From positions 147,089 through 211,088 of the forward strand of contig CAZNDZ010000002.1 of assembly GCA_964572155.1 (NCBI GenBank): DNA of 64,000 nucleotides, read 5' to 3'. Below, in pieces: positions 7,389 through 25,882 of the stretch; positions within the stretch are counted from its first letter, which is position 1; the number at the start of each line of letters is the position of its first letter. The stretch is from an uncultured Planctomycetales bacterium. Lineage in GTDB: Bacteria > Omnitrophota > Gorgyraeia > Zapsychrales > Fredricksoniimonadaceae. The notes under the pieces were generated by a model. It saw only the letters and a program-made list of their open reading frames with translations, searched no databases and was not told the origin of the DNA. The translations under genes were made by a program, and so were the position numbers.

Positions 7389-7472
7389 TATTTAGATATA
7401 TGTCTCTAAAGATAAATAAAATAATTTCGCGCGCGTACAAATACTATTTTATTTAATAAGGAGGGTAAAACA

Positions 7473-7775: not shown

Positions 7776-7790
7776 ATGATGCATTCCTTA

Positions 7791-8541: not shown

Positions 8542-8546
8542 ATTAA

Positions 8547-11500
8547 TTATGGTCCAAAGTTAAGAGATGCTGTACACCAATAATACGCTCCGTCGTAGTA
8601 ACACGTCACAATGTCGGTTGATCCTGCTGCGGCGGTGAATGTTGGCGCAGCGGCCCCGTTCCATTTTACACCTGAACCACCACTTAACGTCGGTGTCCAA
8701 CCACCTGTTCCATCCTGAACAACTTTTAATAATAAATTCGCTACCCCTGATGTTGGCGGTGTCATGGTTATCGTGTATGACGCGCTCATGGTTACTTTTT
8801 GTTTATTACCACGATTCCAATCTAAGGTAAATCCTGAGCCTTGAGTTCCATTGTCATATTCACTACCCATGGTGATCAAATTATTAACCTTCAAATTACT
8901 AAACGACGCCGCTGTCCCAACACCCACATTGCCATACACATTCAAATCTGAAGATGTCAATGACGTCGTCCCGATCCCAACATTACCCCGAACAACCAAC
9001 TTAGCATAATCCGCAGTCCATGTACCGATACCAACATTTCCACTAGCAACCACAAAAGCACCTTGTGGTGCGGTTGTACCAACACCAACATTACTTAATC
9101 CATAAAGAGGCGAATAAAATGCCGCACCTGAAGAATCAATATAATTTAAACTACCAACAAGCAACTCATCAGAATTAATCCTTCCTTTGACTTCCAGATT
9201 AACACTAGGCGCCCAGGTCCCAATCCCCACATTCCCATTGGTCACCACCAACCCACCCTGCGGCGTCGATGTCCCAATCCCAATCTTATCCGACCCCGTC
9301 GTATTATAAACCGTCCCCGTCCCCGTAGACCACCCCGAAGACCCACCCGAGATAGGTAAAGTCCCCGCCGCCATCCACGTCCCAATCCCCGTCGATCCCG
9401 AGACCAACACATAGCCTGCGCCAGGACTAGTCGACAACCTAAACCCATCCGTATCCAACCGTGTCGTTGCTGTCCACGTACCCAGCCCTACATTTCCAGT
9501 CGTGACGGCTAATTTTGCCTGTGGTGTTGTTGTCCCAATCCCAACATTACCTGATTGATCAATGCGCACACGCTCAGCTGTACCAGCAGAATCGGTCGTG
9601 TAGAAAAGCAACCCCCCATAAGATGGGGTCGTCACAACTGCTTTAATCCCCGCAATTTCTCCGTATGCTCCAGCACCAAAAGCCAATGCTACAGTGTCTC
9701 CAACAGTAGTGCTACTCCCTTGAAGATATAGCGCACCAGAATTTGCACTACCGGTTTGAGTCGTAAGAACTTTCATTGCAAAGTTTCCTGACAACTGTAA
9801 ATCACCTGAATTGATTGTTAAAGCAGGCGTAGACCCACCTTGACCATTGATCTGCAATTTCGATGTTGGCGCCCACGTCCCAATCCCAACGTTCCCATTA
9901 GTCACCACCAACCCATCCTGCGGCGTCGATGTCCCAATCCCAACCTTATCAGCCCCCGTCGTATTATAAACCGTCCCCGACCCCGTCGACCACCCCGAAG
10001 ACCCACCCGAAATAGGCAACGTCCCCGCCGCCATCCATGTCCCAATCCCCGTCGATCCAGACACCAACACATAACCAGATGATGGACTCGTCGACAATCT
10101 AAACCCATCCGTATCCAAACGCGTCGTTGCTCTCCACGTTCCAAGACCAACATTGCCACCTATAACTACTAACTTAGCTTGTGGAGTTGTGGTGCCAATA
10201 CCGACATTGCCGTTTGTGCCATTGCCCTGTAACGTTAAAATAGATTGTGGATTAACGTTGCCCACAGGCGCATATTCCAAACTTAATAAACCTAGATCAT
10301 CTGTTGTATCAACCACTTGAGTCATTCTCCAGGCGCCTTTTGTTGCATCATCCTTAACAAAAGCAGCTCCGTCATAACGAAGGTTTGTGAACCACGCGTA
10401 TTGATTACTTGCCGTTGTACCCAAATATGTTCCGAACGTATTTCCAGTCCTACTAAATATTTTAAGATATGAATTAGCACCAACAGCCGGAAGACTTACA
10501 AAAAGAGGATTATCTGGTGCCCACGTCCCAATCCCCACATTTCCATTAGTAACCACAAACCCACCCTGAGGTGTCGATGTACCAATCCCAACATTATTCG
10601 ATCCGGTCGTGTTATAAACCGTCCCCGTCCCCGTCGACCATCCTGAAGACGTTGTCACTGCCAACGTCGTCGATGGAACCCATGTACCAACACCCACAGC
10701 ATTAGCTTGTAAGACATAGCTTGTTGCCGCACCCGTTGTTAATTGAAAAGCTGTTGTCCGTATTGTTCCTGAAACATCAAGGGCTGTTCCTGGATTTGAC
10801 GTACCAACACCAACATTTCCTAAAAAGTAAGAATCCCCAGAACCACTCGCCGCAATATCCCCATTAATATCTAAAGCCTTCGTCGGCGCATACGTCCCAA
10901 TCCCCACATTCCCTTGCACGATCAACCCATTGCCCGTCCCACCATAATACCCCGCATAAGAAGACCCAATCCCTACCCCACCTGACACATCCAATTTATT
11001 CGTTGACAATGAAGTCCCCAACCCAACATTCCCCGTCGCCGTAACATTACTATTAACAATCCCCGAGAACGACCCGCCATTATTATATTGCAACTGCGAA
11101 GAAGACCCACCAGGCGTCCCACCACCAGACGTAGCCAACGTAGACGCCGCCATCCACGTCCCAATACCTGTCGATCCTGAAACTAAAACATAACCTGCAG
11201 CAGGTGACGTCGATAATCTAAACCCATCGGTATCCAACCGCGTCGTCGCTGTCCACGTACCCAACCCAACATTACCCATAACCGCAAGGCCTGTTTGTGG
11301 CGTGGTTGTACCGACACCAACATTACCTTCAATTATTATTCCTCCTAATGGAGCAGAACTTGAGACATATGGAGAGTATGCTACTGTACCCAACCCAATA
11401 TTACCCGACAATGACAGTGTAGACCCTGGGATAGTTGTACCTATACCAAGCTTACCCCCAGACGTTAATCGCATTTTTTCAGATTGACTAAACGCAACAC

Positions 11501-13907
11501 TGGGCATAAATACCCAATCCATATCTCCTGAATTGGTATAATTTGTGCGTTGCAAACGCAGCGAAGCATGAGAACCTGTTACCGTAGAAGCACTGATAGA
11601 AAACCCTATATCAACATTTGCACCTGCCGACGAACTTCCTCCATTGTGAATCATAAAGGCTGGATTATTTCCTCCAGCAACAGCGTCAGAGCGAATAACA
11701 ACTTTGCCTGCCGGTGTGACCCAAGTTCCAATGCCCAAATTCCCAGACATCACAACTAATGCACTAGCTGGTGCCACTGTCCCAATCCCAACATTACCAT
11801 TCCCATCAACAACAAAAGGACTTCCCGTTAACTTATTGATTTGAAACGAAGCCTGCGGCGCCCACGTCCCTATCCCCACATTCCCATTGGTCACCACCAA
11901 CCCACCCTGCGGCGTCGAAGTACCAATTCCCACATTATCTGACCCTGTCGTGTTATAAACCGTCCCCGTCCCCGTCGACCAACCAGATGCCCCCCCCGAT
12001 ACCGGCAAAGTCCCCGCCGCCATCCACGTCCCAATCCCCGTCGCATCTGAAACCATCACATAACCCGCAGCAGGATTCGTTGATAATCTAAACCCATCCG
12101 TATCCAATCTCGTCGAAGCTGTCCATGTTCCAAGGCCTACATTGCCCATAACCGCAAGGCCTGTTTGTGGCGCTACTGTGCCTATACCAACATTTCCTTG
12201 CACAACCATCCCACCCGTTGGCGCAGCATTAACGACATACGATGAATTAATCCCTGTTCCAACCCCAACACCACCTATCACAGTTAATTTACTCCCCGGC
12301 GTTATTGTACCAACACCAATATTTCCTGAAGCACCTTTAATTGTCATTGTCGGCGCTGTAATAGCAACAGCACCTCCCGGAGCGTTAAAAATATTTAAAT
12401 CATTTGAACCATCGGATTGACGAAGATTTTGTAACTTAACAGTACCATTATTGGTCGTACTACTCGTTAGTGTTGAGGTATTTAAAACAATACTTGAAGC
12501 GGTTAGCGTGCTTGTTGAAGCATTAGAAAAAATAGCACCAATAATTTCTCCACCGTTATTTACATTAACAGCCTGCAGTGCAGCTGCTGGAACAAATGTA
12601 CCTATACCTATATTCCCTCCCATAACAACGAGCTTATCGTCTGCCGTCCAAGTACCCAAACCAACATTACCCATAACGACCAAGCCTGTCTGTGGGGTTA
12701 GTGTGCCAACGCCTAGATTACCGCCATATACAACTAATTTTCCTCCAATACTCGTGGGAGTTCCAATTCCCACATTTCCTGCTGAATCAATTGTCATACG
12801 TTGCGCGCCGCTGAGTGTTGTATTATTTCCTGCTGTATAAAATTGAAGTTCGGTTGCTGCATTTAGCACAGAACTTCCACCACCATAACGATTGGTTGTG
12901 ACACTACTACTGCTCGTTCCAACAAAAATTGCCACATCTGATTGAGCATTGGTATAGTGCCGTTGTGTGATATATGCATTCTTATTGGTAGCATCAGCAG
13001 TAGCATCTGTTAAACGCAATTGCACCGTTGAAGGACCAACAATATCCAGTTTTGTATTAGGTCTTAGTGTACCTAATCCAACATTTCCATTCATGATAAC
13101 CAAAGCGCCCTGTGGAGTTGTTGTTCCCAAACCGACATTATCTGAACCTGTCGTATTATAGACCGTTCCCGAGCCTGTCGACCAACCTGTAGCCCCCGCA
13201 CCAATCGTAGCCGGTGCCATCCACGTCCCAATCCCCGTTGATCCTGAAACCAAAACATAACCTGCGGCAGGTGACGTTGACAATCTAAAACCATCTGTGT
13301 CTAATCTTGTCGACGCTGTCCATGTACCAAGCCCCACATTCCCTAAAACAGCAAGCGCAGTTTGTGGTGCTGTTGTTCCAATACCAACATTGGGAACCAT
13401 GATCGACAAGCCACCTATAGACGTAACTGTACCAATTGCAATATTCCCGGCACCCGCACCACTGCCATTAATAAATAAATTACCATTTGCTGATAGCCCA
13501 CTATCCAATCTTGCATTTCCAGCAGCATCAACCCACCAACGCGCAGAACCAGTAAGACCACTATTAACAAGACCAACACCACCAGCATTCGTATCTGTTG
13601 TCTGATTTACATTTAACTTACCTCTGACTGTACCATCATATGACCCTATGACCGCAGTCCCTAATACTTCCAAATTTTGACGGGGCGCCCATGTTCCAAT
13701 ACCAACATTGCCTTGAGTGACAACCAAACCACCTTGAGGCGTTGTTGTACCGATACCAATATTACCGCTAGTACCATTTACAAATAAGAATGACTGGGTA
13801 CTATTTTTTACATTGAAATCTTTTGCAGCTAAGGCAGGCGCCGCTAAAACGGCTATCGCGCAAAAGTTTATAAATAATATTCTTATATAAGAGGATATAA
13901 GTTTCAT
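8547..13907 (-). CDS. Giant secreted tail-fibre-like repeat protein (1786 aa), paralog family member with a type-A C-terminal tip (QDGTGG motif).
   Basis: The signal peptide MKLISSYIRILFINFCAIAVLAAPALA is followed by AKDFNVKNSTQSFLFVNGTSGNIGIGTTTPQGGLVV. It carries dozens of GNVGIGT.TPQ..L.V..GNVG.GTW repeats and four to five copies of the module TTRLDTDGFRLSTSPAAGYVLVSGSTGIGTWMAA...TVYNTTGSDNVGIGTSTPQGGLVVTNGNVGIGTWAP. Confidence 0.8.
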   Translation of the reverse strand: MKLISSYIRILFINFCAIAVLAAPALAAKDFNVKNSTQSFLFVNGTSGNIGIGTTTPQGGLVVTQGNVGIGTWAPRQNLEVLGTAVIGSYDGTVRGKLNVNQTTDTNAGGVGLVNSGLTGSARWWVDAAGNARLDSGLSANGNLFINGSGAGAGNIAIGTVTSIGGLSIMVPNVGIGTTAPQTALAVLGNVGLGTWTASTRLDTDGFRLSTSPAAGYVLVSGSTGIGTWMAPATIGAGATGWSTGSGTVYNTTGSDNVGLGTTTPQGALVIMNGNVGLGTLRPNTKLDIVGPSTVQLRLTDATADATNKNAYITQRHYTNAQSDVAIFVGTSSSSVTTNRYGGGSSVLNAATELQFYTAGNNTTLSGAQRMTIDSAGNVGIGTPTSIGGKLVVYGGNLGVGTLTPQTGLVVMGNVGLGTWTADDKLVVMGGNIGIGTFVPAAALQAVNVNNGGEIIGAIFSNASTSTLTASSIVLNTSTLTSSTTNNGTVKLQNLRQSDGSNDLNIFNAPGGAVAITAPTMTIKGASGNIGVGTITPGSKLTVIGGVGVGTGINSSYVVNAAPTGGMVVQGNVGIGTVAPQTGLAVMGNVGLGTWTASTRLDTDGFRLSTNPAAGYVMVSDATGIGTWMAAGTLPVSGGASGWSTGTGTVYNTTGSDNVGIGTSTPQGGLVVTNGNVGIGTWAPQASFQINKLTGSPFVVDGNGNVGIGTVAPASALVVMSGNLGIGTWVTPAGKVVIRSDAVAGGNNPAFMIHNGGSSSAGANVDIGFSISASTVTGSHASLRLQRTNYTNSGDMDWVFMPSVAFSQSEKMRLTSGGKLGIGTTIPGSTLSLSGNIGLGTVAYSPYVSSSAPLGGIIIEGNVGVGTTTPQTGLAVMGNVGLGTWTATTRLDTDGFRLSTSPAAGYVLVSGSTGIGTWMAASTLATSGGGTPGGSSSQLQYNNGGSFSGIVNSNVTATGNVGLGTSLSTNKLDVSGGVGIGSSYAGYYGGTGNGLIVQGNVGIGTYAPTKALDINGDIAASGSGDSYFLGNVGVGTSNPGTALDVSGTIRTTAFQLTTGAATSYVLQANAVGVGTWVPSTTLAVTTSSGWSTGTGTVYNTTGSNNVGIGTSTPQGGFVVTNGNVGIGTWAPDNPLFVSLPAVGANSYLKIFSRTGNTFGTYLGTTASNQYAWFTNLRYDGAAFVKDDATKGAWRMTQVVDTTDDLGLLSLEYAPVGNVNPQSILTLQGNGTNGNVGIGTTTPQAKLVVIGGNVGLGTWRATTRLDTDGFRLSTSPSSGYVLVSGSTGIGTWMAAGTLPISGGSSGWSTGSGTVYNTTGADKVGIGTSTPQDGLVVTNGNVGIGTWAPTSKLQINGQGGSTPALTINSGDLQLSGNFAMKVLTTQTGSANSGALYLQGSSTTVGDTVALAFGAGAYGEIAGIKAVVTTPSYGGLLFYTTDSAGTAERVRIDQSGNVGIGTTTPQAKLAVTTGNVGLGTWTATTRLDTDGFRLSTSPGAGYVLVSGSTGIGTWMAAGTLPISGGSSGWSTGTGTVYNTTGSDKIGIGTSTPQGGLVVTNGNVGIGTWAPSVNLEVKGRINSDELLVGSLNYIDSSGAAFYSPLYGLSNVGVGTTAPQGAFVVASGNVGIGTWTADYAKLVVRGNVGIGTTSLTSSDLNVYGNVGVGTAASFSNLKVNNLITMGSEYDNGTQGSGFTLDWNRGNKQKVTMSASYTITMTPPTSGVANLLLKVVQDGTGGWTPTLSGGSGVKWNGAAAPTFTAAAGSTDIVTCYYDGAYYWCTASLNFGP
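9210..9490 (-). repeat. Dispersed conserved module of about 290 bp (about 97 aa), GC-rich, copy 1 of at least 10 full copies across the fibre paralogs.
   Basis: Contains the core cccacgtcccaatccccacattcccattggtcaccaccaacccaccctgcggcgtcga...gtccccgccgccatccacgtcccaatccccgtcgatcc, with about 85-90% nucleotide identity to the other copies. Confidence 0.5.
9868..10160 (-). repeat. Dispersed module of about 290 bp, copy 2.
   Basis: Same core sequence. The antisense arginine-rich shadow ORF 9902..10159 nearly duplicates the one at 9242..9448. Confidence 0.5.
11860..12160 (-). repeat. Dispersed module of about 290 bp, copy 3.
   Basis: Same core sequence, read directly. Confidence 0.5.
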
Positions 13908-14032: not shown

Positions 14033-16162
14033 TCACTGATTGCGCTTTTGTTCTTTCATCAAAGTTCTTAGAGCTTCAATTTCTTTTTGAAAATTTCTAC
14101 TATTTTCCTTTAACATATCAACCTGTTGCGTTAAAATATTAACCTTTTCTTTGATTTCATCACGACCCTCGTCGAAACCTTCCCACCAATGTGGATTAAC
14201 ATAGACCATAACTAAGTCGTATGGCTTGGTTGAAGCTTTCATCAATGGTTCAAGGGCCATACCAACCACACGCCCTGACTTCACAGCTTTTGCACCAATG
14301 CCCGCACGCGATGAACTTGTGATCATATCACCAATATGTATAGGGCCATTTTCAAGACTGACCTTAACAGGGATTCTTCCAGCCAAAGCAACCGCAGGTT
14401 TATTGGGCTGTAGTGTATATCCCTTGCCATTGATAATACCAACACTAGACCCCTCAATAACAATGGCTGGCTCCGTCGAGACAACACCAAAGAGGTAGTT
14501 ATTGTAAATATTTACGGCTTTCATGACCGTAACGGATGAACGCACATCGAGCATGACAACATCACCATTATCAACAGGCTCTGAAGATGGGATAAGTTCT
14601 GCTAAGTCAACACATGACGTTGTCCCTGTACTTGACGAACATCCACCAATCTGCAAACTATAATTTGCATTGGCCGTACCAATCCCCACATTACCCCCTT
14701 GCACAATCAACGCCGCTCGAGGAGAAAACGTTCCAATACCAACATTCCCATTAATAACCACTAATTTCGCTTGTGGCGTGTTTGTTCCAATACCAATATT
14801 ATTCTCGACAATAAGTCCCCCATTAGGAGCTGCCGTCAGAATAAAACTATTGTTACGATTAGTACCTATCGCAATACCACCACTTGTTACAACAAATTTA
14901 CTTAGTGGATAAACAGTACCTATCCCCACATTCCCACGATATGTCGCAGAAGAACTCACGCCAAGCAAAACATTACCAACAACCCCTGACCCTGAATTTG
15001 CTCCACCAACAATAAAAACATCTCCACCTTTTCCATTCCCGCTCGATGAGCTTCCACCGGAAATTGCTGCATTACCTGGATCGCCACCATTCTGAGCAGC
15101 GCCACCAGCAAGAGAAAGAGCGCCACCATGATTAGGCGAACCATTATTTCCACCACTACCACCAGAAATAGTAACTGGTCCTCCGTAAAGAGATGAACCG
15201 CTTCCTCCAGTCAACGTTAAACTTGAAGCCGTAACACTTCCACTCCCACTCATCGTAAATGACGATGCACCTAAACTGTTATAGGTTCCACTTGTTAACG
15301 TTATTGAACCACCTTGAGACACACTTGTAGAATTACCCCCAGAAATTGAAAAACTTCCTTGTGCAACTGATGCTGACGTAGACGTTCCAATTGTTAAACT
15401 GATACTTCCAGAACCAGCTCCGGCACTAGAACCAGATGTGATTGATATACTACCACCTGTTCCACTGGTAGACCCACCAACACCACCGGTTAAGGCAATA
15501 CCACCACCATTTCCACCATTAGAACCAGCACCCCCTGTCATGGATAGTCCACCACCGGAAGTATTTCCAGTTCCGGCGCCGCCTTTTAGAACCACCGCTG
15601 ATGTAACATTTGGTGCACCAAGAACCGAGAAAAATGATTGCGGAAAAATACTTCCTATACCCACATTTCCATTAGCGACAACAAATGCTCCAGCCGGAGC
15701 CCACGTCCCAATCCCAACATTCCCATTGGTCACCACAAATCCACCCTGCGGCGTCGATGTCCCAATCCCAATTCTATCAGCCCCAGTCGTGTTATAAACC
15801 GTCCCAGTACCCGTCGTCCACCCTGACGTCCCACCCGAAATAGGCAAAGTCCCCGCCGCCATCCACGTCCCAATCCCAGTCGAATCCGACACCATCACAT
15901 AACCCGCCGCTGGATTTGTTGATAACCTCAACCCATCCGTATCCAACCGCGTCGTCGCTGTCCAAGTCCCTAGACCAACATTCCCACCAATAACCGCTAA
16001 CTTAGCTTGCGGGGTTGAGGTGCCGATACCGAAGTTTCCACTGCTAGCCGTTGGAGCTGGACTATCGGTATCATTAAAGTTAATCCCCGACGACCAAGCA
16101 GACTGTAAACCCATAATGAGGACAATGGTTAAACATAGATAAAGTAAACGGGTTCGTATCAT
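14033..16162 (-). CDS. Secreted fibre-family protein (709 aa). It has the same N-terminal repeats and module, a central Gly/Ser-rich low-complexity region, and a distinct C-terminal globular domain followed by a coiled coil.
   Basis: Signal peptide, then GNFGIGTSTPQAKLAVIGGNVGLGTWTATTRLDTDGLRLSTNPAAGYVMVSDSTGIGTWMAAGTLPISGG. The middle is (G/S/T)n, e.g. GGAGTGNTSGGGLSMTGGAGSNGGNGGG. The C-terminus is ...GDVVMLDVRSS...GRIPVKVSLENGPIHIGDMITSSSRAGIGAKA...EIKEKVNILTQQVDMLKENSRNFQKEIEALRTLMKEQ. Confidence 0.75.
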   Translation of the reverse strand: MIRTRLLYLCLTIVLIMGLQSAWSSGINFNDTDSPAPTASSGNFGIGTSTPQAKLAVIGGNVGLGTWTATTRLDTDGLRLSTNPAAGYVMVSDSTGIGTWMAAGTLPISGGTSGWTTGTGTVYNTTGADRIGIGTSTPQGGFVVTNGNVGIGTWAPAGAFVVANGNVGIGSIFPQSFFSVLGAPNVTSAVVLKGGAGTGNTSGGGLSMTGGAGSNGGNGGGIALTGGVGGSTSGTGGSISITSGSSAGAGSGSISLTIGTSTSASVAQGSFSISGGNSTSVSQGGSITLTSGTYNSLGASSFTMSGSGSVTASSLTLTGGSGSSLYGGPVTISGGSGGNNGSPNHGGALSLAGGAAQNGGDPGNAAISGGSSSSGNGKGGDVFIVGGANSGSGVVGNVLLGVSSSATYRGNVGIGTVYPLSKFVVTSGGIAIGTNRNNSFILTAAPNGGLIVENNIGIGTNTPQAKLVVINGNVGIGTFSPRAALIVQGGNVGIGTANANYSLQIGGCSSSTGTTSCVDLAELIPSSEPVDNGDVVMLDVRSSVTVMKAVNIYNNYLFGVVSTEPAIVIEGSSVGIINGKGYTLQPNKPAVALAGRIPVKVSLENGPIHIGDMITSSSRAGIGAKAVKSGRVVGMALEPLMKASTKPYDLVMVYVNPHWWEGFDEGRDEIKEKVNILTQQVDMLKENSRNFQKEIEALRTLMKEQKRNQ
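15700..15990 (-). repeat. Dispersed module of about 290 bp, copy 4 (inside the 709 aa gene).
   Basis: Same core sequence, read directly. Confidence 0.5.
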
Positions 16163-16199: not shown

Positions 16200-16988
16200 T
16201 TATTCCGTTATCTTCATATTACTTAATTTCACATTGCTCAACTTATTTGGCATTGATTTATATAATTGCAAAACATCCGCATCTGTTAGAGCTCTGCTGT
16301 AAATCCGAAGCTCATCAATGATCCCATTAAAATACGCATTATAGCCAGACGCAGTATATCTTCGCCCAATCGTAAGCGCGGTAGAATCATAGGCAATGGT
16401 GCCCCCCGCATACCCAGTAGTCCCTTCCAGAACACCATTTAAATATGTTTTTATATTCGCTCCATCATATGTTCCAGTAAAAAAATACCAACTGCCTGCT
16501 GATAAACTTGTTGTACTAACTGCAGCATTTAAGTAACTTTTTACATGAAAATATAAGAGATGCCCAGAGCTTTTATAAACAACATAGGCATCATCAGTTG
16601 CCGTATTGTTCGCTTTCCCCAAAACATACATTGAACTAGTAGAAGCCCCTCCACTAACAGTTGTTGTCGTCAACGCATTTAATTTAAACCAGAATGAAAC
16701 TGTAATATAAGATGGGGTGATGCTTGAGCTATTTGATATGCTTACATAATCATTTACCCCATCGAAATTCAATGCCCCCGGCCCAATTCTTCCAGCAACA
16801 TAAGTCGGACTACTATTACAAGTACCCGTATTAGCATTTCTCGTTGAATCAACCACCGTCGCACCTGCACATGCTCCAGAAGACGCCTCATTCATTCTCC
16901 ACCAAGCCACAAGCCCAGTACGAATGTCTGCCTGTACAGGATTTGCTAGAAATAAAAATAGGACTGTTAAAATAATTTTATGCATCAT
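16200..16988 (-). CDS. Secreted LamG-domain protein, second partner gene. Its start ATG overlaps the stop of the upstream fibre gene in the sequence TAATG.
   Basis: MMHKIILTVLFLFLANPVQADIRTGLVAWWRMNEASSG ... YFNGIIDELRIYSRALTDADVLQLY. The ORF track starts it at a TTG at 17003. The ATG at 16988-16986 shares its A with the TAA stop at 16990-16988. Confidence 0.75.
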   Translation of the reverse strand: MMHKIILTVLFLFLANPVQADIRTGLVAWWRMNEASSGACAGATVVDSTRNANTGTCNSSPTYVAGRIGPGALNFDGVNDYVSISNSSSITPSYITVSFWFKLNALTTTTVSGGASTSSMYVLGKANNTATDDAYVVYKSSGHLLYFHVKSYLNAAVSTTSLSAGSWYFFTGTYDGANIKTYLNGVLEGTTGYAGGTIAYDSTALTIGRRYTASGYNAYFNGIIDELRIYSRALTDADVLQLYKSMPNKLSNVKLSNMKITE

Positions 16989-19900
16989 TAAAACGTAAAC
17001 CAATTGGTCCCATTTGAATAAACTCTTAATACCCCATAGTTCGCCGAGATAGTGACCGACGACGCACCATCAATTGTCTCGCCACCTTCACCGTCCACCG
17101 TAATATTATTTGTCCCTGCACCACCGGACTCATCTTTAACAATCACAATACGACCAACCTTCGCATCCGCCGTTGCCAAATGCACCGTACGCACTGCCGA
17201 CGTATCTGTCACCGCAATGATCGTCTGACCTGCTGTTGTTGCCGTCGCTGCCGTTGTTGTACGATACACCGCCAATGATTGCTTTAACTGCATCCCCGAC
17301 GTAGCTGTCCACGTTCCGATACCAACATTGCCATTTACAATCGCTAAACCCGCCTGAGGTGTGGTGGTACCAAAACCTACATTCCCTGATGAAAAATATG
17401 AATCGCCTGATCCTGCCGCGATGATCCCACCATTTACTTCCAACGCTGCTGCAGGCGTTGTCAGACCAATCCCAACATTGGTACCCGTATCGTACACGAC
17501 TGAATTCGTTAATGATGTTGCACTTGCAGCACGAGGCATATAATTTGCACTCAACCCAGACACTCCACCTGAAGATGGCAAAGTCCCCGGAGCCATCCAC
17601 GTCCCAATCCCTGTCGATCCAGACACCAACACATAACCAGAAGCCGGACTCCTCGATAATCTAAACCCATCCGTATCTAATCTCGTCGCCGCTGTCCAAG
17701 TACCTAAACCAACATTACCCATCACAGTAAGCGCAGCCTGCGGTGAAGTTGTTCCTATACCCACATTATTTTGAATGATCATACCGCCTGAAGGCGCTGC
17801 AGTTGTTACAAAAGGAGAGTAACTCACAGTGCCTATACCAACACCACCTGCAGCTACCGCTAATTTATTTGATGCAGCTATTGTGCCAATACCAACATTG
17901 CCCGAACCAGTAATCACAAATGTTGCACCAGTATAATTTCCTGGAGTAGGATGCATCGCACCAACACCAAATGATCCATCATAACTAGTTTTTAACGATG
18001 CTGCTCCTCCTGCAGATCCATTTGCTGTAGGCAAATCTGCACCAGCAGCACCAGAAGCAAAAAATCTAAATTGACCTTCATTGCCATAAAAATAAAATAA
18101 ACCTGCTGCACCTGCAGCGCGATATTTCCAACTAGTACCATTGTAGTACGTATTCTCTGAGACCCATGCATTCCCCAAAGCATATGAATTAAATTCTAGC
18201 GATCCAGTCTTCATATTGGAATTCGTCGTATTAAACCCACCAACATCTAATTTCAAACTAGGCGCCCAAGTCCCAATCCCCACATTCCCATTGGTCACCA
18301 CAAGCCCACCCTGCGGTGTCGATGTCCCAATCCCAACATTGTCAGTCCCCGTCGTTGCATAAACCGTCCCCGACCCCGTTGACCATCCGGACGTCCCACC
18401 CGATATCGGCAAAGTCCCCGCAGCCATCCACGTCCCAATCCCTGTCGATCCCGAGACTAAAACATAACCTGCGGCTGGATTCGTTGATAATCGAAATTCA
18501 TTCGTATCTAACGCCGTAATAGGTGCAATTGTGTTGATACCAATGTTTCCACCAAAAACTACCAACTTCGCCTGTGATGTTGTTGTACCTATACCGACAT
18601 TCCCATTTGCGTCAATGCGCATGCGTTCAACCTCGCCAATGGTATCAACCGTTCCGAAAATCAGCGACCCATAGCTGGGCGTCGTTCTTACGCCAGCAAT
18701 ATAAGCAATCGTACCAACTGACGAAGCAAGATTAATCTTTACACTAGTTCCGACAGAGCCTCCAGTGTTTTCTAGATATAAGGCATTAAATGGCAACGCA
18801 TCAACAGATCCTTTAATCTGAACCGGATAAGGAGCACTACTCCCTTGAGATCCAGCTTCAACCATTAATGTTGGTTCTGTCGTAGCAAATCCCTTGATAT
18901 TAAGCTTTGCTGCCGGTACCCACGTCCCAATCCCCACATTCCCATTAGTCACCACAAAAGCACCCTGAGGCGTCGACGTGCCAATCCCTACTTTGTCATA
19001 CGTTCCAATCCCAACACCGGAGTTTGTAAACCACTGACTAGAACCACTACTCGACGTCGCCAACGTAGACGCCGCCATCCACGTCCCGATACCTGTCGAT
19101 CCAGATACTAAAACATAACCTGCGGCAGGATTTGTCGACAAGCGCAACCCATCCGTATCCAACCGCGTCGTCGCTGTCCAAGTACCCAAACCAACATTAC
19201 CCATAACAATCAATTTATCTTGAGGCGTGGTTGTTCCAATACCAACATTGTCTTGCACAATTAAACCACCGACAGGCGCAGCTGCACTTGTAAAGGCAGA
19301 ATTGAAACCTGTACCGATACCAACACCACCTGCTACAGATAGTTTTGATCCAGGGATTGTTGTACCAATACCAACACTTAAACTATCCCCTGTAATGCGT
19401 ATGGCTTCTGTACGAACAAAGGCCTTACTAGGCTCAATGATCATGTCGATATCGCCGGAAGTTGTTCTGTTCGTTCTTAATGCTTTTATTGCTGCATGCG
19501 CTGCATTTGCAGATCCATTGGCAACATAAAATCCTAAATCGGCATAACCACCACCTGTACTATTTTGAAGAACTAAAACTGGATTAACATTTGAAGTAGA
19601 AAAAATATTTGGAACAAGCGACGCCCATGTCCCAACACCAACATTACCCATCACAACTAAACCATTCCTTGGGACAGTATAATCTCCAACAGCTGTCGTA
19701 CCAATCCCCACACTACCCTTTACATCCAATAAATTATTTGTAACCCACGTCCCAATCCCCACATTCCCATTGGTCACTACTAATCCACCCTGTGGCGTCG
19801 TCGTACCAACACCAACATTACCACCAAGAACAGCTAATCTTGCAGTTGAAGAAACCATATCCGTACCAATACCAACATTTCCGGTGCTCTTTAGTACCAA

Positions 19901-20659
19901 ACTAGGAACAACAGCTCCATTGATTGAGAAGAATCCCATGTCTGCTGTTACGGTTGGTCGAATCATCAATGAACCATTTACACCCGTTGTATTTGTAATC
20001 TGATAAAACCATTCATTATTTTGGGATGCATGATTAATTCTCGCTAAAGAAAATATTGCTTGTCCTGAACCACCATCTTGCGTTACTTTAAAACCTTGTA
20101 CTGGAGATTTTACATCTAAAGCAAATGAAGGCGCATTTGTCCCAACCCCAACATTTCCTGTTGTAACGATCAACCCACCACCTGGCGCCCACGTCCCAAT
20201 CCCCACATTCCCATTAGTGACCACAAACCCACCCTGCGGCGTCGAAGTTCCAATCCCCACCTTATCCGCACCCGTCGTGTTATATACCGTCCCAGTCCCC
20301 GTCGACCAACCTGTAGGTGCTGCATTGATAGTCGATGGTGCCATCCACGTCCCAACACCTGTTGATCCAGACACCAAAACATAACCTGACGCTGGACCAG
20401 AAGACAATCTAAAACCATTTGTATCCAAAGCCGCACTTGGACTCCATGTGCCGATCCCAACATTTCCTTGCGTCACCACCAACCCACCCTGCGGCGTCGT
20501 GGTACCAATGCCGATATTACCACTCGCGCCATTGACATATAAAAATGATTGCGTGTCATTCTTAATATTAAAATCTTTAGCTGCAAACACATGCGATGAC
20601 AAGGCAGCGGCCATGGCAGTTAATAACATAATTCTTATGTAAGATAAAACCTTTCTCAT
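16988..20659 (-). CDS. Giant secreted tail-fibre-like repeat protein (1223 aa), paralog with a type-B C-terminal tip (...ETIDG...NWFTF).
   Basis: MRKVLSYIRIMLLTAMAAALSSHVFAAKDFNIKNDTQSFLYVNGASGNIGIGTTTPQGG, with three copies of the shared module. The C-terminus is RIVIVKDESGGAGTNNITVDGEGGETIDGASSVTISANYGVLRVYSNGTNWFTF. Confidence 0.8.
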   Translation of the reverse strand: MRKVLSYIRIMLLTAMAAALSSHVFAAKDFNIKNDTQSFLYVNGASGNIGIGTTTPQGGLVVTQGNVGIGTWSPSAALDTNGFRLSSGPASGYVLVSGSTGVGTWMAPSTINAAPTGWSTGTGTVYNTTGADKVGIGTSTPQGGFVVTNGNVGIGTWAPGGGLIVTTGNVGVGTNAPSFALDVKSPVQGFKVTQDGGSGQAIFSLARINHASQNNEWFYQITNTTGVNGSLMIRPTVTADMGFFSINGAVVPSLVLKSTGNVGIGTDMVSSTARLAVLGGNVGVGTTTPQGGLVVTNGNVGIGTWVTNNLLDVKGSVGIGTTAVGDYTVPRNGLVVMGNVGVGTWASLVPNIFSTSNVNPVLVLQNSTGGGYADLGFYVANGSANAAHAAIKALRTNRTTSGDIDMIIEPSKAFVRTEAIRITGDSLSVGIGTTIPGSKLSVAGGVGIGTGFNSAFTSAAAPVGGLIVQDNVGIGTTTPQDKLIVMGNVGLGTWTATTRLDTDGLRLSTNPAAGYVLVSGSTGIGTWMAASTLATSSSGSSQWFTNSGVGIGTYDKVGIGTSTPQGAFVVTNGNVGIGTWVPAAKLNIKGFATTEPTLMVEAGSQGSSAPYPVQIKGSVDALPFNALYLENTGGSVGTSVKINLASSVGTIAYIAGVRTTPSYGSLIFGTVDTIGEVERMRIDANGNVGIGTTTSQAKLVVFGGNIGINTIAPITALDTNEFRLSTNPAAGYVLVSGSTGIGTWMAAGTLPISGGTSGWSTGSGTVYATTGTDNVGIGTSTPQGGLVVTNGNVGIGTWAPSLKLDVGGFNTTNSNMKTGSLEFNSYALGNAWVSENTYYNGTSWKYRAAGAAGLFYFYGNEGQFRFFASGAAGADLPTANGSAGGAASLKTSYDGSFGVGAMHPTPGNYTGATFVITGSGNVGIGTIAASNKLAVAAGGVGIGTVSYSPFVTTAAPSGGMIIQNNVGIGTTSPQAALTVMGNVGLGTWTAATRLDTDGFRLSRSPASGYVLVSGSTGIGTWMAPGTLPSSGGVSGLSANYMPRAASATSLTNSVVYDTGTNVGIGLTTPAAALEVNGGIIAAGSGDSYFSSGNVGFGTTTPQAGLAIVNGNVGIGTWTATSGMQLKQSLAVYRTTTAATATTAGQTIIAVTDTSAVRTVHLATADAKVGRIVIVKDESGGAGTNNITVDGEGGETIDGASSVTISANYGVLRVYSNGTNWFTF
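18250..18520 (-). repeat. Dispersed module of about 290 bp, copy 5.
   Basis: Same core sequence, read directly. Confidence 0.5.
20190..20460 (-). repeat. Dispersed module of about 290 bp, copy 6.
   Basis: Same core sequence, read directly. Confidence 0.5.
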
Positions 20660-20756
20660 CTTAAATCTTGCATGCCTCTGTAATAATAATCTTGACGTGT
20701 TTATTATTTATTGATATATTATCAAATATTATTGCTTCTTTGTCATAGCTAAGGTC

Positions 20757-20830
20757 GCCCCGGTAGTTCAATTGGATAGAACACTCCACTAACGAAGGAA
20801 CGGTTGCGGGTTCGAATCTCGCCCGGGGCG
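20757..20830 (+). tRNA. tRNA-like element (74 nt, no encoded CCA), the only clear plus-strand gene. Its acceptor, D and T arms are canonical, but the anticodon stem is weak and the anticodon AAC is atypical for a bacterium. It may be a pseudo-tRNA or an unusual tRNA.
   Basis: The acceptor arms GCCCCGG and CCGGGGC pair 7/7. The D arm is GTTC-AATTGGATA-GAAC. The T arm is GCGGG-TTCGAAT-CTCGC. The discriminator is G. The anticodon arm CTCCA-CTAACGA-AGGAA has only 3 Watson-Crick pairs, and the loop reads C32 U33 A34 A35 C36 G37 A38. Confidence 0.4.
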
Positions 20831-20950
20831 CACTGATGGAGCACATCAAAGCAGTTAGTGGACTTTGATATGCCCCGCTCTTGACAAAGATATTTCTACG
20901 TGATATAAATAAATTATCGTTAGTGGAGTGCTTTGAGCTACTGGAGTTTA

Positions 20951-20984
20951 GGGCAAGGTGATTTTCATCTTGCCCTTTTTCTTT
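20951..20984 (+). terminator. Rho-independent terminator on the plus strand, about 120 nt downstream of the tRNA-like element.
   Basis: GGGCAAG-gtgattttcat-CTTGCCC followed by TTTTTCTTT. Confidence 0.5.
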
Positions 20985-21019
20985 GCCCCATATATAGTTT
21001 AAATCGATTCTCATCTCTA

Positions 21020-24000
21020 TTAATACCCCTTAGCAAAACCCACAACATACCACTTGTCAGCAACAACGTTATAGATAGCTGTTAGAAAATCTCTTTTACT
21101 TGCTGTTGTTGTTAACGTAACGGAAGAAATGTCTGAACCTAATTGGAATTTGGTATCTAGCGTAATCGTTCGACTACCCGTGCCATCTTGAATAATCTCC
21201 CATACAACACGCTGTCCGTCAGTTGGATTGGTTGGGTTAGAGAGTGTGAAATTTTGTGTTGTGGTTAAACGGAAATGATTCCCCAAGGAAGCATCGGTTG
21301 CAACTGATGCTGCATCGGTTAATGTTGTTACAATTTGCGAGAACCCACCCTTAAGAGATAACGTCGTCGGAGCCAACGCTGTTCCAATACCAACGTTCCC
21401 ACCCTTAACAATCAACGCACCATTCGCGGCAGTTACAGTACCAATACCAACATTCCCCATAACTGCAAGCCCTGTTTGTGGCGTTGCTGTTCCAATACCA
21501 ACATTACCCTGAATGATCATCCCGCCTAACGGTGGCGCTGTTGTTAAATATTCACCATTTGCCGACGTACCCAAACCAATATTACCAACAATACTAACCT
21601 TTGCCCCACCACTCGACATCCATGTGCCGATACCGACAGTGCCACCATTCATCACAGCAAGTTGGACAGTAGGCACGCTTGTGCCGATGCCTACATTTCC
21701 TCCATCAGCAAATCTCACAGCTTCATATACTGAACCACCTGACTTTAACGTATAAAAAACAAGGTCTGTGGAACTGGAACTAGTGTACATCCCTTGAATA
21801 CTAGCTGATGCGGCAGTAAGAGCAGCAACCCCAAAACCAAATGTTATCCCAGAACTTGAACTTGTGGTTGCATTGGTATTTCGCAAGAGAACGGTACGTG
21901 CACAACCTGCACAACCACCATGAATATAAGCCAATGGTGTTGTAGAGCCAGTATAAGGTGCATTAATATCCAACCATGCCTGAGGCGTCCATGTGTTTAT
22001 ACCCACATTGCCTGTTAAAATAGAAACCGCACCACCTTGCGTAAACGTTGTCCCGATCCCAATATTACCGACGGAGTCGATAACAAACGGTGATGTTGTT
22101 AGTGGATTGACTTGGAACATCGCTGCCGGCGCAAACGTACCAATACCCACATTGCCGTTCATGACAGTTAAAGCAGAACGATTTGTTGCAGAAGTTCCCA
22201 ACCCAACATTGCCACTACTTGGCAAATAAACATCATTCGTATTTGTCGTCGACCACCCCGAAGACCCACCCGAAATAGGCAACGTCCCCGCCGCCATCCA
22301 CGTCCCAATCCCCGTCGATCCTGAAACTAAAACATAACCTGCACTTGGATTTGTATTTAATTGAAGTCCAGTGGTGCGGGTGGTGCCTTGGATGTCTAGG
22401 GCTGTGCCTGGGGATAACGAACCAATACCTACATTACCTTCAACGATCATCCCACCCGATGGTGCAGTTGTACTTACATATGATGAATTAAATCCTGTTC
22501 CAATACCAACGCCCCTTACTACAGTCAACGCACTTTTGGGATCCACTGTACCTATACCAATATTTCCAGAAGCATTGATCCTCATCCATTCAGCTTGCGA
22601 TGATGAATTTGTAAACCTTAAACCTGTCTCATTCACATTACCTCTAATTTGTCCACCGTCAGATGAGGCATCATCATTATTGTATAATATTATAAACGGC
22701 TCAAAGAATCCACCGCCTGTTCTTTGAATCCTTAAGCCTGCTGAACCACCCTTAACATGAAATTGCGACGCTGGCGCCCACGTCCCAATCCCCACACTTC
22801 CATTGGTCACCACAAACCCACCCTGAGGTGTCGATGTCCCAATCCCAATGTTTCCTGAAGAAGTAATCCTCATTCTCTCACCACCGCCACCCACACCTGT
22901 ACTCAATGTTTTGAAATAAATATCCGTTGGTAAATTTGAACCATCTACAGTCCCATTAACCACTGTGCCTATTTCAGCACCTTCAATGACTGTACCTGAT
23001 CCAACCGCACCTTGAAACGAAAAACGTCCTACAAAATCACCGGTTTGAAGGGTTGTATTTGTCGACGCATCAGAACTTCTTGTGTGATAAAACGTCAGAT
23101 TTGCAGCGCCTGAATCATTTGTCGCCCTTGCAACAACTAAACCCCAATTACTTCCTGGATGCACTACATATGCTTTTCCTGCTAAAGAACTTGATAATGA
23201 AGTTGGATAACCAGACCCGGCAGGTTTAACCCCTAAGCTTCCATTAACATCAAAATCTAACTTGGGCGCCCACGTACCAACCCCCACATTCCCATTGGTC
23301 ACCACCAAAGCTCCTTGAGCTGTTGATGTGCCAACACCTACATTACCCGTCGCTAAAAGGGTTGACGTACGGATATTTCCAAGAACATCTAACAATGACC
23401 CCGGCGCTTGAGAACCAATACCAACATTACCAGTCGAAGCATTACCCTGCAAAGAAAGGATTGATACTGGCGTGACAACACCAACTGGTGAATATTGCAA
23501 ATCAAATCTACTTGCAGCATTTGTGGTATCTACAACCTGAGTCGCTCTCCAAGCGCCTTTAGTTGCATCATCCTTAACAAAAGCAGCGCCATCATAGCGC
23601 AGGTTCGTTAACCATGAGTATTGATTTGTTGCCGTCGTCCCCAAATACGTACTAAAAGTATTTCCTGCAGTATTAAATATACGCACATATGAATTACTAC
23701 CTATACCAGGAAGACTAATAAAAAGCGGATTATCCGGCGCCCACGTCCCAATCCCCACATTCCCATTCGTCACCACCAACCCACCCTGCGGCGTAGAGGT
23801 CCCAATCCCCACCTTATCCGCCCCCGTCGTGTTATAAACCGTACCCGTCCCCGTTGACCACCCCGACGTCCCACCCGAAATCGGCAAAGTCCCCGCCGCC
23901 ATCCACGTCCCAATCCCCGTTGATCCTGATACTAAAACATAACCAGCCGCAGGCGACGTCGATAATCTAAACCCATCGGTATCCAACCTCGTCGACGCTG

Positions 24001-25114
24001 TCCATGTACCTAGCCCAACATTTCCCATTGAAACAAACCCTGTTTGTGGCGTCGTCGTCCCTAAACCAACGTTGCCTTGCACAATCATCCCGCCTGTCGG
24101 CGCAGCCGTTGAAACATAGTTTGAATTAAAACCAGTTCCTATGCCAACACCACCTGCGACAGACAAGAGACTTGCTGGTTCAGTTGTGCCAATACCCACA
24201 TTACCAGCATTCTTCACAATAAATAAATCACCTAACACAGTACCGCTATTGATTGCAAAATTATCATCTGAAGTAGTCTTAAAAATCTCTAAATTAACAT
24301 TACTATGGACCGTATTCGATCCCCTAGACACAGCCACACTACCCTGATTATTTGTTGTAACAACTGTTAATGATGAGGCCCCTGCATTACAATCAAGACC
24401 TGCACTGGTTGAGGAATAACAGAAATCAAATTGATTGATATCACTATCATATAAAAGGCTAGCGTGGGATACTCCCGCATCATAAAACTTAATACCAATG
24501 ATGCCAGATGTAAATGTTTTGGAACTCCCCTTATCGCCGATCGACATATACGCTCCATTGACATCAAACGCAGAAGTCGTTGAAGTATAATTCGTGATAT
24601 TCGAGATAATTGCTGCATCACCAATAACGTACAAATTCCTAGAAGCCACCCACGTCCCAATCCCCACATTCCCATTCATTACACTTAACGCAGCTGCCGT
24701 AGTTATTGTTGTACCTAAACCCACATTTCCATTACTTGGCAAATAGACATCATTAGTGTTTGTCGTCGTCCACTGTGAAGATCCACCCGATATCGGCAAA
24801 GTCCCCGCCGCCATCCACGTCCCAATACCTGTTGTATCGGAAACTAAAACATGTCCTGCGCTTGGATTTGTATTTAATTGTAGGCCTGTGGTGCGGGTGG
24901 TGCCTTGGACGTCAAATACAGTGCCGGGCGTTAAGGATCCAATGCCAACATTTCCGCCGATGACAATCAACTTACCACCAAAGGCACTAAAGGTACCGAT
25001 ACCTAAATTCGACGAGGAACCTGTGTCTGACAATGGAAAATAAGATGCCTGCGCCATTTTTAACGCCGCCATCAACACCAAAACCACTATCCCAACAATC
25101 AATTTATTACGCAT
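21020..25114 (-). CDS. Giant secreted tail-fibre-like repeat protein (1364 aa), paralog with a type-A C-terminal tip (QDGTGS). It has no LamG partner.
   Basis: Signal peptide and the GNVGIGT repeats. It shares a module of about 150 aa with the 1786 aa protein (GIGTWAPDNPLF[IV]SLP..GSNSY..IF...GNTF.TYLGTTA.NQY.W.TNLRYDGAAFVKDDATKGAWR.TQVVDTT). The C-terminus RVVWEIIQDGTGSRTITLDTKFQLG matches VVQDGTGGWTPTLSGG in the 1786 aa protein. Confidence 0.8.
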   Translation of the reverse strand: MRNKLIVGIVVLVLMAALKMAQASYFPLSDTGSSSNLGIGTFSAFGGKLIVIGGNVGIGSLTPGTVFDVQGTTRTTGLQLNTNPSAGHVLVSDTTGIGTWMAAGTLPISGGSSQWTTTNTNDVYLPSNGNVGLGTTITTAAALSVMNGNVGIGTWVASRNLYVIGDAAIISNITNYTSTTSAFDVNGAYMSIGDKGSSKTFTSGIIGIKFYDAGVSHASLLYDSDINQFDFCYSSTSAGLDCNAGASSLTVVTTNNQGSVAVSRGSNTVHSNVNLEIFKTTSDDNFAINSGTVLGDLFIVKNAGNVGIGTTEPASLLSVAGGVGIGTGFNSNYVSTAAPTGGMIVQGNVGLGTTTPQTGFVSMGNVGLGTWTASTRLDTDGFRLSTSPAAGYVLVSGSTGIGTWMAAGTLPISGGTSGWSTGTGTVYNTTGADKVGIGTSTPQGGLVVTNGNVGIGTWAPDNPLFISLPGIGSNSYVRIFNTAGNTFSTYLGTTATNQYSWLTNLRYDGAAFVKDDATKGAWRATQVVDTTNAASRFDLQYSPVGVVTPVSILSLQGNASTGNVGIGSQAPGSLLDVLGNIRTSTLLATGNVGVGTSTAQGALVVTNGNVGVGTWAPKLDFDVNGSLGVKPAGSGYPTSLSSSLAGKAYVVHPGSNWGLVVARATNDSGAANLTFYHTRSSDASTNTTLQTGDFVGRFSFQGAVGSGTVIEGAEIGTVVNGTVDGSNLPTDIYFKTLSTGVGGGGERMRITSSGNIGIGTSTPQGGFVVTNGSVGIGTWAPASQFHVKGGSAGLRIQRTGGGFFEPFIILYNNDDASSDGGQIRGNVNETGLRFTNSSSQAEWMRINASGNIGIGTVDPKSALTVVRGVGIGTGFNSSYVSTTAPSGGMIVEGNVGIGSLSPGTALDIQGTTRTTGLQLNTNPSAGYVLVSGSTGIGTWMAAGTLPISGGSSGWSTTNTNDVYLPSSGNVGLGTSATNRSALTVMNGNVGIGTFAPAAMFQVNPLTTSPFVIDSVGNIGIGTTFTQGGAVSILTGNVGINTWTPQAWLDINAPYTGSTTPLAYIHGGCAGCARTVLLRNTNATTSSSSGITFGFGVAALTAASASIQGMYTSSSSTDLVFYTLKSGGSVYEAVRFADGGNVGIGTSVPTVQLAVMNGGTVGIGTWMSSGGAKVSIVGNIGLGTSANGEYLTTAPPLGGMIIQGNVGIGTATPQTGLAVMGNVGIGTVTAANGALIVKGGNVGIGTALAPTTLSLKGGFSQIVTTLTDAASVATDASLGNHFRLTTTQNFTLSNPTNPTDGQRVVWEIIQDGTGSRTITLDTKFQLGSDISSVTLTTTASKRDFLTAIYNVVADKWYVVGFAKGY
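23745..24010 (-). repeat. Dispersed module of about 290 bp, copy 7.
   Basis: Same core sequence, read directly. Confidence 0.5.
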
Positions 25115-25132: not shown

Positions 25133-25882
25133 TCAATTCATCCGATAATTCTCAATCTTCCCCGCCCCATTCATCTTAAACCGCGGCTCACCCGAATTAT
25201 AAATCGCCTTGATCTCCGTCTCAGTAAGCACCCGATTATAAAGCCGTACATCATCGATACTTCCACTAAAAAGCTGTGATGCTGCAGCACGCCGACCAAT
25301 AGCTTTTGCTCCACTGGAGTTTGAATACGTAAGACCTACATGGTTAGTTAGACTAACCGAAACTCCATTCACATAAATACTACTCGTTGCACCTGCTCCG
25401 TTCTTGATATACGCAATATGCGTCCAAACATTCTGTGTAAGCGTCCCACTTACTGACTCCACATCAACTTGACCAGTATATAAGCTTCCCACTCTTCCTG
25501 ATCCTGCACTAGCAGGACCTTGACCAACTTCAAACATAAATGCATTTACTGCATTTTCTTGTCCAAATACTGTATATCGCGTTGTTAATGAACCGCTAAA
25601 ATATATCCATGCTGTAAACGTAAATGTATTTCCAATAGCAATAAGTTGAGCTGGAAGTGCTATATAGTCATCTGATGCATCAAAGCTAATCCCGCCATTT
25701 CTCTTACCACTTACCCATGTCGGTCCATTTGTCAATGTACCTGTATTTCCTTGACCGCTCGAATCACTAGTAGTAACGCCACTCCCCTCATCCAACTTCC
25801 ACCACCCCACCAATCCATCCGTGACGTCGGCATGCGAAGAAGTGCTACACATTAAAATAAACACAAATAGTAAATACCTCAT
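25133..25882 (-). CDS. Secreted LamG-domain protein, third partner gene. Again a TAATG stop/start overlap with the upstream fibre gene.
   Basis: MRYLLFVFILMCSTSSHADVTDGLVGWWKLDEGSGVTTSDSSGQGNTGT ... LFSGSIDDVRLYNRVLTETEIKAIY. The ATG at 25882-25880 shares its A with the TAA at 25884-25882. The ORF track uses a TTG at 25897. Confidence 0.75.
   Translation of the reverse strand: MRYLLFVFILMCSTSSHADVTDGLVGWWKLDEGSGVTTSDSSGQGNTGTLTNGPTWVSGKRNGGISFDASDDYIALPAQLIAIGNTFTFTAWIYFSGSLTTRYTVFGQENAVNAFMFEVGQGPASAGSGRVGSLYTGQVDVESVSGTLTQNVWTHIAYIKNGAGATSSIYVNGVSVSLTNHVGLTYSNSSGAKAIGRRAAASQLFSGSIDDVRLYNRVLTETEIKAIYNSGEPRFKMNGAGKIENYRMN

Follow-up and report, generated by a model that had tools for sequence, protein, structure and literature searches.

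Fibre-LamG gene junctions in an uncultured Omnitrophota bacterium are probably ordinary operon-internal stop/start junctions

In the phage pairs T4 gp37/gp38 and lambda Stf/Tfa, the fibre gene is followed directly by a small gene, which often overlaps it and whose product acts on or at the fibre tip. The subject of this study is a 64,000-nucleotide (nt) stretch of the genome of an uncultured Omnitrophota bacterium (assembly GCA_964572155.1, contig CAZNDZ010000002.1, positions 147,089 to 211,088; hereafter the window), in which three genes for large fibre-like proteins are each followed by a gene for a LamG-domain protein, at two places through the overlap TAATG, where the fibre stop and the LamG start share one nucleotide. 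A survey of 1,695 species, covering 2.66 million gene pairs, found two distances to predominate by far, -4 nt first and -1 nt second, the -1 overlap being the second commonest gene spacing in prokaryotes, across 49 phyla (PMC10666635). Termination-reinitiation couples genes at distances of -8 to about +10 nt (PMC10666635, PMC6728339), and at this geometry all native pairs assayed in E. coli and Haloferax were strongly coupled, an effect lost once the distance reached ~20 nt (PMC10666635). The fibre-LamG junctions, at -1, -1, and +5 nt, lie within this range and would, by mechanism, belong to this well-described class of gene pairs that overlap and are coupled in translation. We put at roughly 65% the probability that they are ordinary operon-internal stop/start junctions, with LamG co-transcribed with the fibre and translated largely by termination-reinitiation.

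All genes in the window except one transfer RNA (tRNA) gene lie on the minus strand, to which all coordinates below refer unless stated otherwise. At the first TAATG (16990-16986), the TAA at 16990-16988 is the stop of the 1,223-amino-acid (aa) fibre F1223 (16988-20659), and the ATG at 16988-16986 is the start of a 262-aa LamG protein (16200-16988). A second in-frame ATG follows at 16985-16983, with the LamG gene beginning ATG ATG CAT AAA. At the second TAATG (25884-25880), the TAA ends the 1,910-aa fibre F1910 (25882-31614), and the ATG begins a 249-aa LamG protein (25133-25882). There is no intergenic space at either overlap. At the third junction (8539-8549), the TAA stop of the 1,786-aa fibre F1786 (8547-13907) occupies 8549-8547 and is separated by the 5-nt spacer TTAAT from the ATG at 8541-8539 of a 239-aa LamG protein (7822-8541). 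The 3' ends of F1223 and F1910 read AAT TGG TTT ACG TTT TAA (protein ...GTNWFTF) and AAT TGG TGG GTG ATT TAA (protein ...GSNWWVI), and in each the AAT-TGG (Asn-Trp) codons contain a TTG that lies in the LamG frame 15 nt upstream of the LamG ATG (17003-17001 and 25897-25895). Reading of the minus strand bore out the original prediction on the coordinates of both overlaps, on the two TTGs and their Asn-Trp origin, and on the spacer of the third pair.

The downstream genes were correctly named. In each of the three proteins, a predicted signal peptide (MMHKIILTVLFLFLANPVQA, MRYLLFVFILMCSTSSHA, and MKRLINICFVFMLFTPTISHA for the first, second, and third partner, respectively) is followed by a Laminin_G_3 domain of the concanavalin A-like lectin superfamily (PF13385), matched at E values of about 1e-26 to 1e-28 (1.5e-28, 1.5e-26, and 3.8e-26 for the first, second, and third partner); the scores, which as a set were 92.5, 100.3, and 93.8 bits, all exceed the gathering cut-off of 27.6. 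Relatives in the PDB include the S-layer domain protein 4qvs, which was the closest (E 5e-22), and the tetanus toxin Hc lectin-like domain. Identity among the three paralogs is just 31 to 37%, and in the orthologue search the closest match to any of them was 31 to 39% identical.

In the proposed mechanism, each fibre-LamG pair would be carried on one transcript, LamG translation would begin at the ATG of the TAATG or, in the third pair, 5 nt past the fibre stop, and ribosomes that had just terminated on the fibre open reading frame (ORF) would reinitiate on LamG. From the geometry we infer that LamG is probably coupled to the fibre in this way, the distances of -1 and +5 nt falling, as had been proposed, in a junction class shown experimentally elsewhere to couple (PMC6728339, PMC10666635). 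Co-expression of fibre and LamG is likely, because the LamG genes sit tightly behind the fibres and such junctions couple in the tested pairs. No terminator-like site was found at any of the three fibre-LamG junctions. A strong Shine-Dalgarno sequence was absent before all three LamG starts, with a weak GGUGGGUG at one that derives from WWV codons, and this absence is compatible with reliance on upstream translation. No RNA structure masking the LamG starts was predicted (z-scores of +0.43, +1.03, and -1.38, with +0.70 for a ybeY control), and a promoter scan was uninformative, giving 32 matches against 42 in shuffled sequence. Like the termination-reinitiation pairs studied experimentally (Huber et al. 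2019, PMC6728339; 2023, PMC10666635), the window pairs are co-directional, are joined by a -1 TAATG-type overlap or a spacer of no more than 10 nt, and have the downstream start region inside the upstream coding sequence; in geometry they are no different. They differ in their products, which are separately exported predicted Sec substrates rather than subunits of a cytoplasmic complex.

The overlap itself is commonplace within the window. Its 26 same-strand junctions include three -1 overlaps, two ATGA overlaps, and four more at 1 to 10 nt, and one of the -1 overlaps is a TAATG between housekeeping genes, leading from an HDIG-domain protein to YbeY (42118-42114). Of all TAA triplets on this strand, 15% are followed by TG. 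Hence, the TAATG geometry is not above chance for tightly linked operon genes.

Two further claims, that the TAATG junctions arose independently and that their identical flanks are a signal, did not survive comparison of the fibre C-termini. Those of F1223 and F1910, termed type I here, are homologous (38% identity over 139 aa), and the two junctions are therefore not independent. The shared geometry is explained by this common tip domain, in which N-W-x-x-x-stop is family-wide: about 100 phage type-I homologues end in ...DG(S/T)NW-x-x-x-stop, making the Trp four residues from the end a family trait. The junctions behind these phage homologues were at -1 in 10 cases, -4 in 8, and +9 to +12 in 24. 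A TTG 15 nt upstream is likewise to be expected, because the Asn-Trp is conserved, Trp is encoded by TGG, and Asn is mostly encoded by AAT (85% of cases in the window). Three of the four possible bases before a TGG codon (A, T, and G) create an NTG start-like codon, and at the F1223/F1910-type position in an orthologue from the closest available relative a Gln-Trp (CAA-TGG) creates ATG instead. The TTGs at 17003-17001 and 25897-25895 were thus judged to be a by-product and not starts, and, as far as sequence comparison goes, the matching layout of the two junctions is not in itself a signal.

The label "fibre" proved a fair one, the upstream genes ending in phage-tail-type domains by profile match, viral relatives, and predicted fold. 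The type-I domain matched PHROG 20556, "baseplate protein" (E 8e-16). Viral contigs contain at least 182 of its relatives, with identities reaching 64%, and a tape-measure protein and tailspike-type genes are among their neighbours; some homologues carry PF07880. With an AlphaFold2 model of the type-I domain as a monomer (pLDDT 89), Foldseek retrieved 7RFV/7REJ (CBA120 TSP4-N), 5IV5 (T4 baseplate), 4DNY, and 6O38 (StcE, CpaA), with query-normalised TM-scores of 0.52 to 0.61; for TSP4-N and the T4 baseplate, the E values were 5e-5 to 2e-3. These same structures are listed as neighbours of the XD1 fold (PMC8825819), and the modelled tip is accordingly described as T4 gp9/gp10 XD1-like. With the small phage tail-module proteins of this kind (PF07880, PHROG 20556, 7REJ/7RFV, 5IV5), the type-I tips share the ...DGSNW-x-x-x-stop ending and the predicted fold, and genes for the domain frequently have a -1 or -4 overlap behind them. 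In contrast to the phage proteins, the domain stands here at the C-terminus of proteins of 1,200 to 1,900 residues with Sec signal peptides, encoded on a bacterial chromosome between housekeeping genes rather than within a virion module. What lies downstream of the phage genes varies (tailspikes, small ORFs, and rarely LamG).

The LamG-linked fibres belong to a cluster of six paralogous large-protein genes running from 39431 down to 7822 and encoding 2,563, 1,910, 1,364, 1,223, 709, and 1,786 aa. The fibre-family proteins have predicted N-terminal Sec-type signal peptides, a shared AAKDFNIKN... N-terminus, and GNVGIGT-type repeats; F1223, for example, combines the signal peptide and repeats with four 85-aa modules and the type-I C-terminal domain, which in F1910 ends ...CDGSNWWVI. 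F1786 has a different, type-II C-terminal domain in common with F1364 (21020-25114). No LamG gene follows F1364, and the fibre-LamG pairing is therefore not obligatory within the cluster. F709 (14033-16162), with yet another C-terminus, begins 37 nt after the first LamG partner, and the 2,563-aa repeat protein (31740-39431), of the same superfamily, is encoded by the first gene of the cluster and has no LamG gene after it. The conserved module of ~85 aa occurs in 17 copies across the six fibre genes, with nucleotide repeats 60 to 96% identical. Repeats within the 2,563-aa gene have start-to-start spacings of 246, 495, and 741 nt and are up to 96% identical, and within F1910 a segment of at least 300 nt is duplicated (26279-26578 versus 29645-29944, 80% identical). 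Judged from the sequence, this modular repetition across 7800-39500 suggests ongoing recombination or gene conversion. No fibre protein had a Pfam match, and no significant match came from sequence searches of the PDB with the type-I tip profile, the type-II tip sequence, the module, or the C-terminus of F709. When the tip domain and the module were searched against proteins, the matches were all to proteins of <190 aa, many of them from phage genes, and these searches were unsuited to surveying long fibres; the short matches on the two nanopore contigs inspected were fragments of broken genes.

Tight linkage of LamG to fibre was observed directly in the window, where each of the three LamG genes starts at a distance of -1 to +5 nt from a fibre gene and three of the six fibre paralogs are followed by one, at -1, -1, and +5 nt. 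Among LamG relatives in metagenomes, 1 of the 38 that could be evaluated had, by heuristic calls, an upstream ORF of any kind at a distance of -8 to +10 nt. The linkage is modestly above chance.

The linkage was not shared by relatives. The closest available relative, the metagenome-assembled genome (MAG) CAZFNI01, has orthologues of all three LamG-linked fibres, with C-terminal identities of 75% for F1910 (locus L006), 58% for F1223 (fibre A of locus L008), and 68% for F1786 (fibre B of L008), and no LamG gene follows any of them. The original prediction had named a lack of conservation in relatives as grounds for refutation, and such a lack was observed: in this MAG the orthologous fibres are followed by TPR membrane proteins or by the next fibre. 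The F1910 orthologue overlaps, through ATATGATGG, a gene that encodes a polytopic TPR protein of 546 aa. Directly behind the F1223 orthologue, with 16 nt between them, comes the F1786 orthologue, and the gene for another TPR protein begins 23 nt past the end of the latter. The proteins encoded after fibres in this MAG (L006 17428-19083; L008 6439-8295 and 11935-13590) are polytopic membrane proteins of ~550 to 620 aa with C-terminal TPR. They could be fibre-modifying or export factors, and no equivalent was seen in the window. A six-frame hidden Markov model scan of eight fibre-bearing loci of other genomes (L005-L010, L234, L235) detected fibre modules in large number, but neither strand contained a LamG ORF, and no fibre module or tip domain was found upstream on the same strand of LamG relatives in 80 metagenome loci and 58 viral loci. 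The sole parallel was in two related viral contigs (L122 and L131), in which a TAATG joins the gene for a type-I-domain protein to one for a Laminin_G_3 protein. A text search of two papers on giant genes of Omnitrophota found no mention of such fibre-LamG pairs.

Several observations weigh against operon-internal coupling as the explanation. The three window LamG genes are paralogs and not independent events, the baseline of 1/38 rests on heuristic start and ORF calls, and many window genes, the fibres included, also lack a Shine-Dalgarno sequence, so that its absence is not diagnostic of coupling. The calls of the LamG starts also disagree, with one annotation of the second paralog (P0177) using GTG 25894, 12 nt upstream of the overlapping ATG, and another (P0180) an internal ATG in the third; because public annotations picked other starts, the LamG start is likely rather than certain. 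If translation began at an upstream TTG or GTG (17003, 25897, or 25894, giving 13- to 16-nt overlaps) or at a downstream ATG, the TAATG would be irrelevant, and the ORF listing does extend both TAATG LamG ORFs to a TTG. However, the TTG is accounted for by the conserved Asn-Trp codons of the fibre, the extension would add MVYVL or MVGDL, uncharged or acidic, before an already complete signal peptide, and the internal ATG of P0180 would delete the positively charged n-region. Upstream of its ATG, the third paralog offers no other in-frame NTG as a start, and all three N-termini align from their ATGs. These starts give the paralogs matching predicted n-h-c signal peptides of 18 to 21 residues that end in A/H-x-A, with predicted cleavage between MMHKIILTVLFLFLANPVQA and D, MRYLLFVFILMCSTSSHA and D, and MKRLINICFVFMLFTPTISHA and H, and in all three they place Met1 23 to 26 residues from a conserved GLVGWW motif. 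The gene call on an independent assembly of the same locus (L001) gives the 1-nt overlap at both TAATG junctions. LamG therefore likely starts at the overlapping ATG, and mis-assignment appears very unlikely. The differing start assignments also produce spurious "variants" in 90% clusters (P0177, P0180), whose members, examined as potential strain variants, are identical DNA. Relative to the fibre, LamG is read in the -1 frame, which at 16988 is open for 27 codons upstream, as would suit programmed -1 frameshifting or readthrough into a fibre-LamG fusion. Such a fusion was rejected and has a negligible probability: no X XXY YYZ slippery heptamer precedes either TAATG stop, the LamG frame is open for just 5 to 6 codons upstream at the other two junctions, and a cleavable signal peptide on each LamG would be senseless inside a fusion; nor is a stable downstream structure predicted.

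The remaining two alternatives accept the starts and concern what the overlap does. It might be neutral compaction, with an inserted LamG cassette merely abutting the fibre stop and LamG initiating independently on an A/U-rich, unstructured start. The 15% of TAA triplets that precede TG, the lack of occluding RNA structure at the LamG starts (z of +0.4, +1.0, and -1.4), and the fact that most window genes have no Shine-Dalgarno sequence yet must self-initiate are all consistent with this, as is the direct succession of fibre A and fibre B in the relative, which suggests that the LamG genes and F709 were inserted or lost in one lineage. Since same-geometry native pairs in E. coli and Haloferax all coupled strongly, zero reinitiation at -1 would be unusual, and wholly independent initiation is distinctly improbable. 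At the other extreme, the original prediction had held that the overlap sets a fixed stoichiometry of fibre and LamG subunits; in a strong version of this reading, the two form a single heteromeric surface fibre with LamG as its distal lectin. Overlapping pairs are indeed enriched for subunits of heteromeric complexes (30 to 45% versus 6 to 7%), but 55 to 70% of them encode no complex (PMC10666635). All three LamG genes sit tight behind a fibre, unlike LamG relatives elsewhere, and the viral contigs L122 and L131 independently show a type-I tail protein followed by TAATG and Laminin_G_3; the LamG fold, moreover, is a common carbohydrate-binding module, with an S-layer domain protein as its closest solved structure (4qvs, E 5e-22). 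Against a heteromer, no LamG neighbour was present for any of the three fibre orthologues in the nearest relative or in the eight fibre-bearing loci of other genomes, three further fibre-family genes of the cluster have no LamG after them, and LamG stands behind two unrelated tip types, I and II. The tip matches XD1 of T4 gp9/gp10 and TSP4, which is not a known partner-docking domain (PMC8825819), and the idea of the tip as a gp10 XD2/XD3-type docking platform for LamG was weakened on the same ground. Because fibre and LamG carry separate signal peptides, co-translational assembly in the cytoplasm is unlikely. With separate export, two unrelated tip types, an XD1 rather than an XD2/XD3 docking fold, and no pairing in relatives, a fibre-LamG complex is unsupported; by analogy, fixed stoichiometry within a physical complex is possible, and we consider the heteromeric fibre rather unlikely. 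Termination-reinitiation within an ordinary operon remains the preferred reading of the junctions.

Other described systems resemble the cluster in part. The MAT fibres of Bdellovibrio bacteriovorus (Caulton et al. 2024, PMC10769870) are, like the proteins described here, secreted paralogs of ~1000 or more residues with a conserved N-terminus and shaft and exchanged tips, some of them phage-like, and Omnitrophota, like Bdellovibrio, have been proposed to be host dependent or predatory. However, the sequence match is marginal (module profile versus Bd2133, 8OND, E 0.065), the S74 intramolecular chaperone terminus that most MAT members have was not detected here (no Pfam match in any fibre, and no PDB match for the F709 C-terminus), and the description of MAT fibres (PMC10769870) includes no LamG companion encoded by a gene of its own. 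Compared with T4 gp38 and lambda Tfa, the window LamG proteins are dissimilar in sequence and carry predicted signal peptides; they had no match to the Tfa/gp38 tail fibre assembly families, and their PHROG matches were to LamG-containing virion proteins or proteins of unknown function. In the viral contigs IMGVR_UViG_3300030104_003910 (L122) and 3300025127_000035 (L131), the type-I tail protein and TAATG are followed by a 247- to 251-aa Laminin_G_3 protein (Pfam E 5e-14 and 7e-11) that is without a signal peptide and is 23 to 26% identical to the window LamG proteins. The Trp there lies six residues before the stop and not four, and the 15-nt TTG geometry is consequently missing. These pairs look like an independent instance of the type-I-LamG arrangement. 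Both contigs also contain paralogous tail-fibre-like genes in arrays of five to six. Every gene of an array has a type-I domain at its end, and one or two LamG genes are interspersed; these arrays are a phage counterpart of the chromosomal fibre cluster.

The surroundings are those of a bacterial chromosome. NrdA, GuaA, DnaE, a HisS-like protein, AspS, PhoH, the HDIG protein, YbeY, MreD, and PBP2 are encoded in the upstream half of the window, which is not a phage. Omnitrophota MAGs, of which one is labelled "uncultured Planctomycetales," are the nearest genomes to share the fibre module. The only plus-strand gene, a tRNA-Val with the unusual anticodon AAC (20757-20831; ARAGORN, and Rfam tRNA at 53.9 bits), is located in a 360-nt gap separating two fibre genes and is followed by a strong terminator-like hairpin at 20950-20976; a 117-aa ORF of the public gene calls (20661-21014) is its opposite-strand shadow. 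Beyond the last LamG gene, a perfect 16-nt palindrome, TGATATCATGATATCA, at 7791-7806 lies directly upstream of a 95-aa gene (7497-7784) with a weak NCBIfam match to ribbon-helix-helix or RelB-like proteins. The palindrome TGATATCATGATATCA looks like a candidate autoregulatory operator, and no toxin partner gene was evident downstream of the RelB-like gene. A further giant ORF (3-7391; at least 2,463 aa) is cut off by the left edge of the window. Its N-terminus resembles a signal peptide, it contains one DUF11 repeat, and it bears no relation to the fibre family. The aspartate-tRNA ligase (45008-46396) has just 462 aa, and its usual insertion domain appears to be missing, since a 590-aa bacterial model was matched in two stretches. 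The same locus, L001 (GCA_013565695.1, contig JACCDT010082146.1), is in a highly fragmented public assembly with contig numbers above 82,000 and also occurs in the assemblies that Logan provides for SRR10036058 and SRR10036063; possibly the bacterium was a passenger in a sample sequenced for a eukaryote or a community.

As a stop/start overlap, TAATG offers nothing new here, being one more common operon junction, and the fibre cluster is its mildly interesting context. The modest value of the finding lies in that context: an uncultured, probably host-dependent member of the Omnitrophota with six mosaic secreted fibres and phage-baseplate-type tips, three of the fibres being linked to LamG. It is conceivable, though unlikely, that the LamG proteins are separately exported lectin tip subunits of phage-derived fibres used for host-cell recognition by an Omnitrophota episymbiont or predator. 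If so, the coupled fibre-LamG cassettes would represent a lineage-specific diversification of receptor specificity, paralleled by rare phages that combine the tip domain with LamG. If the fibre-LamG pairs are physical complexes, they would be candidate host-recognition adhesins in a phylum without cultured genetics.

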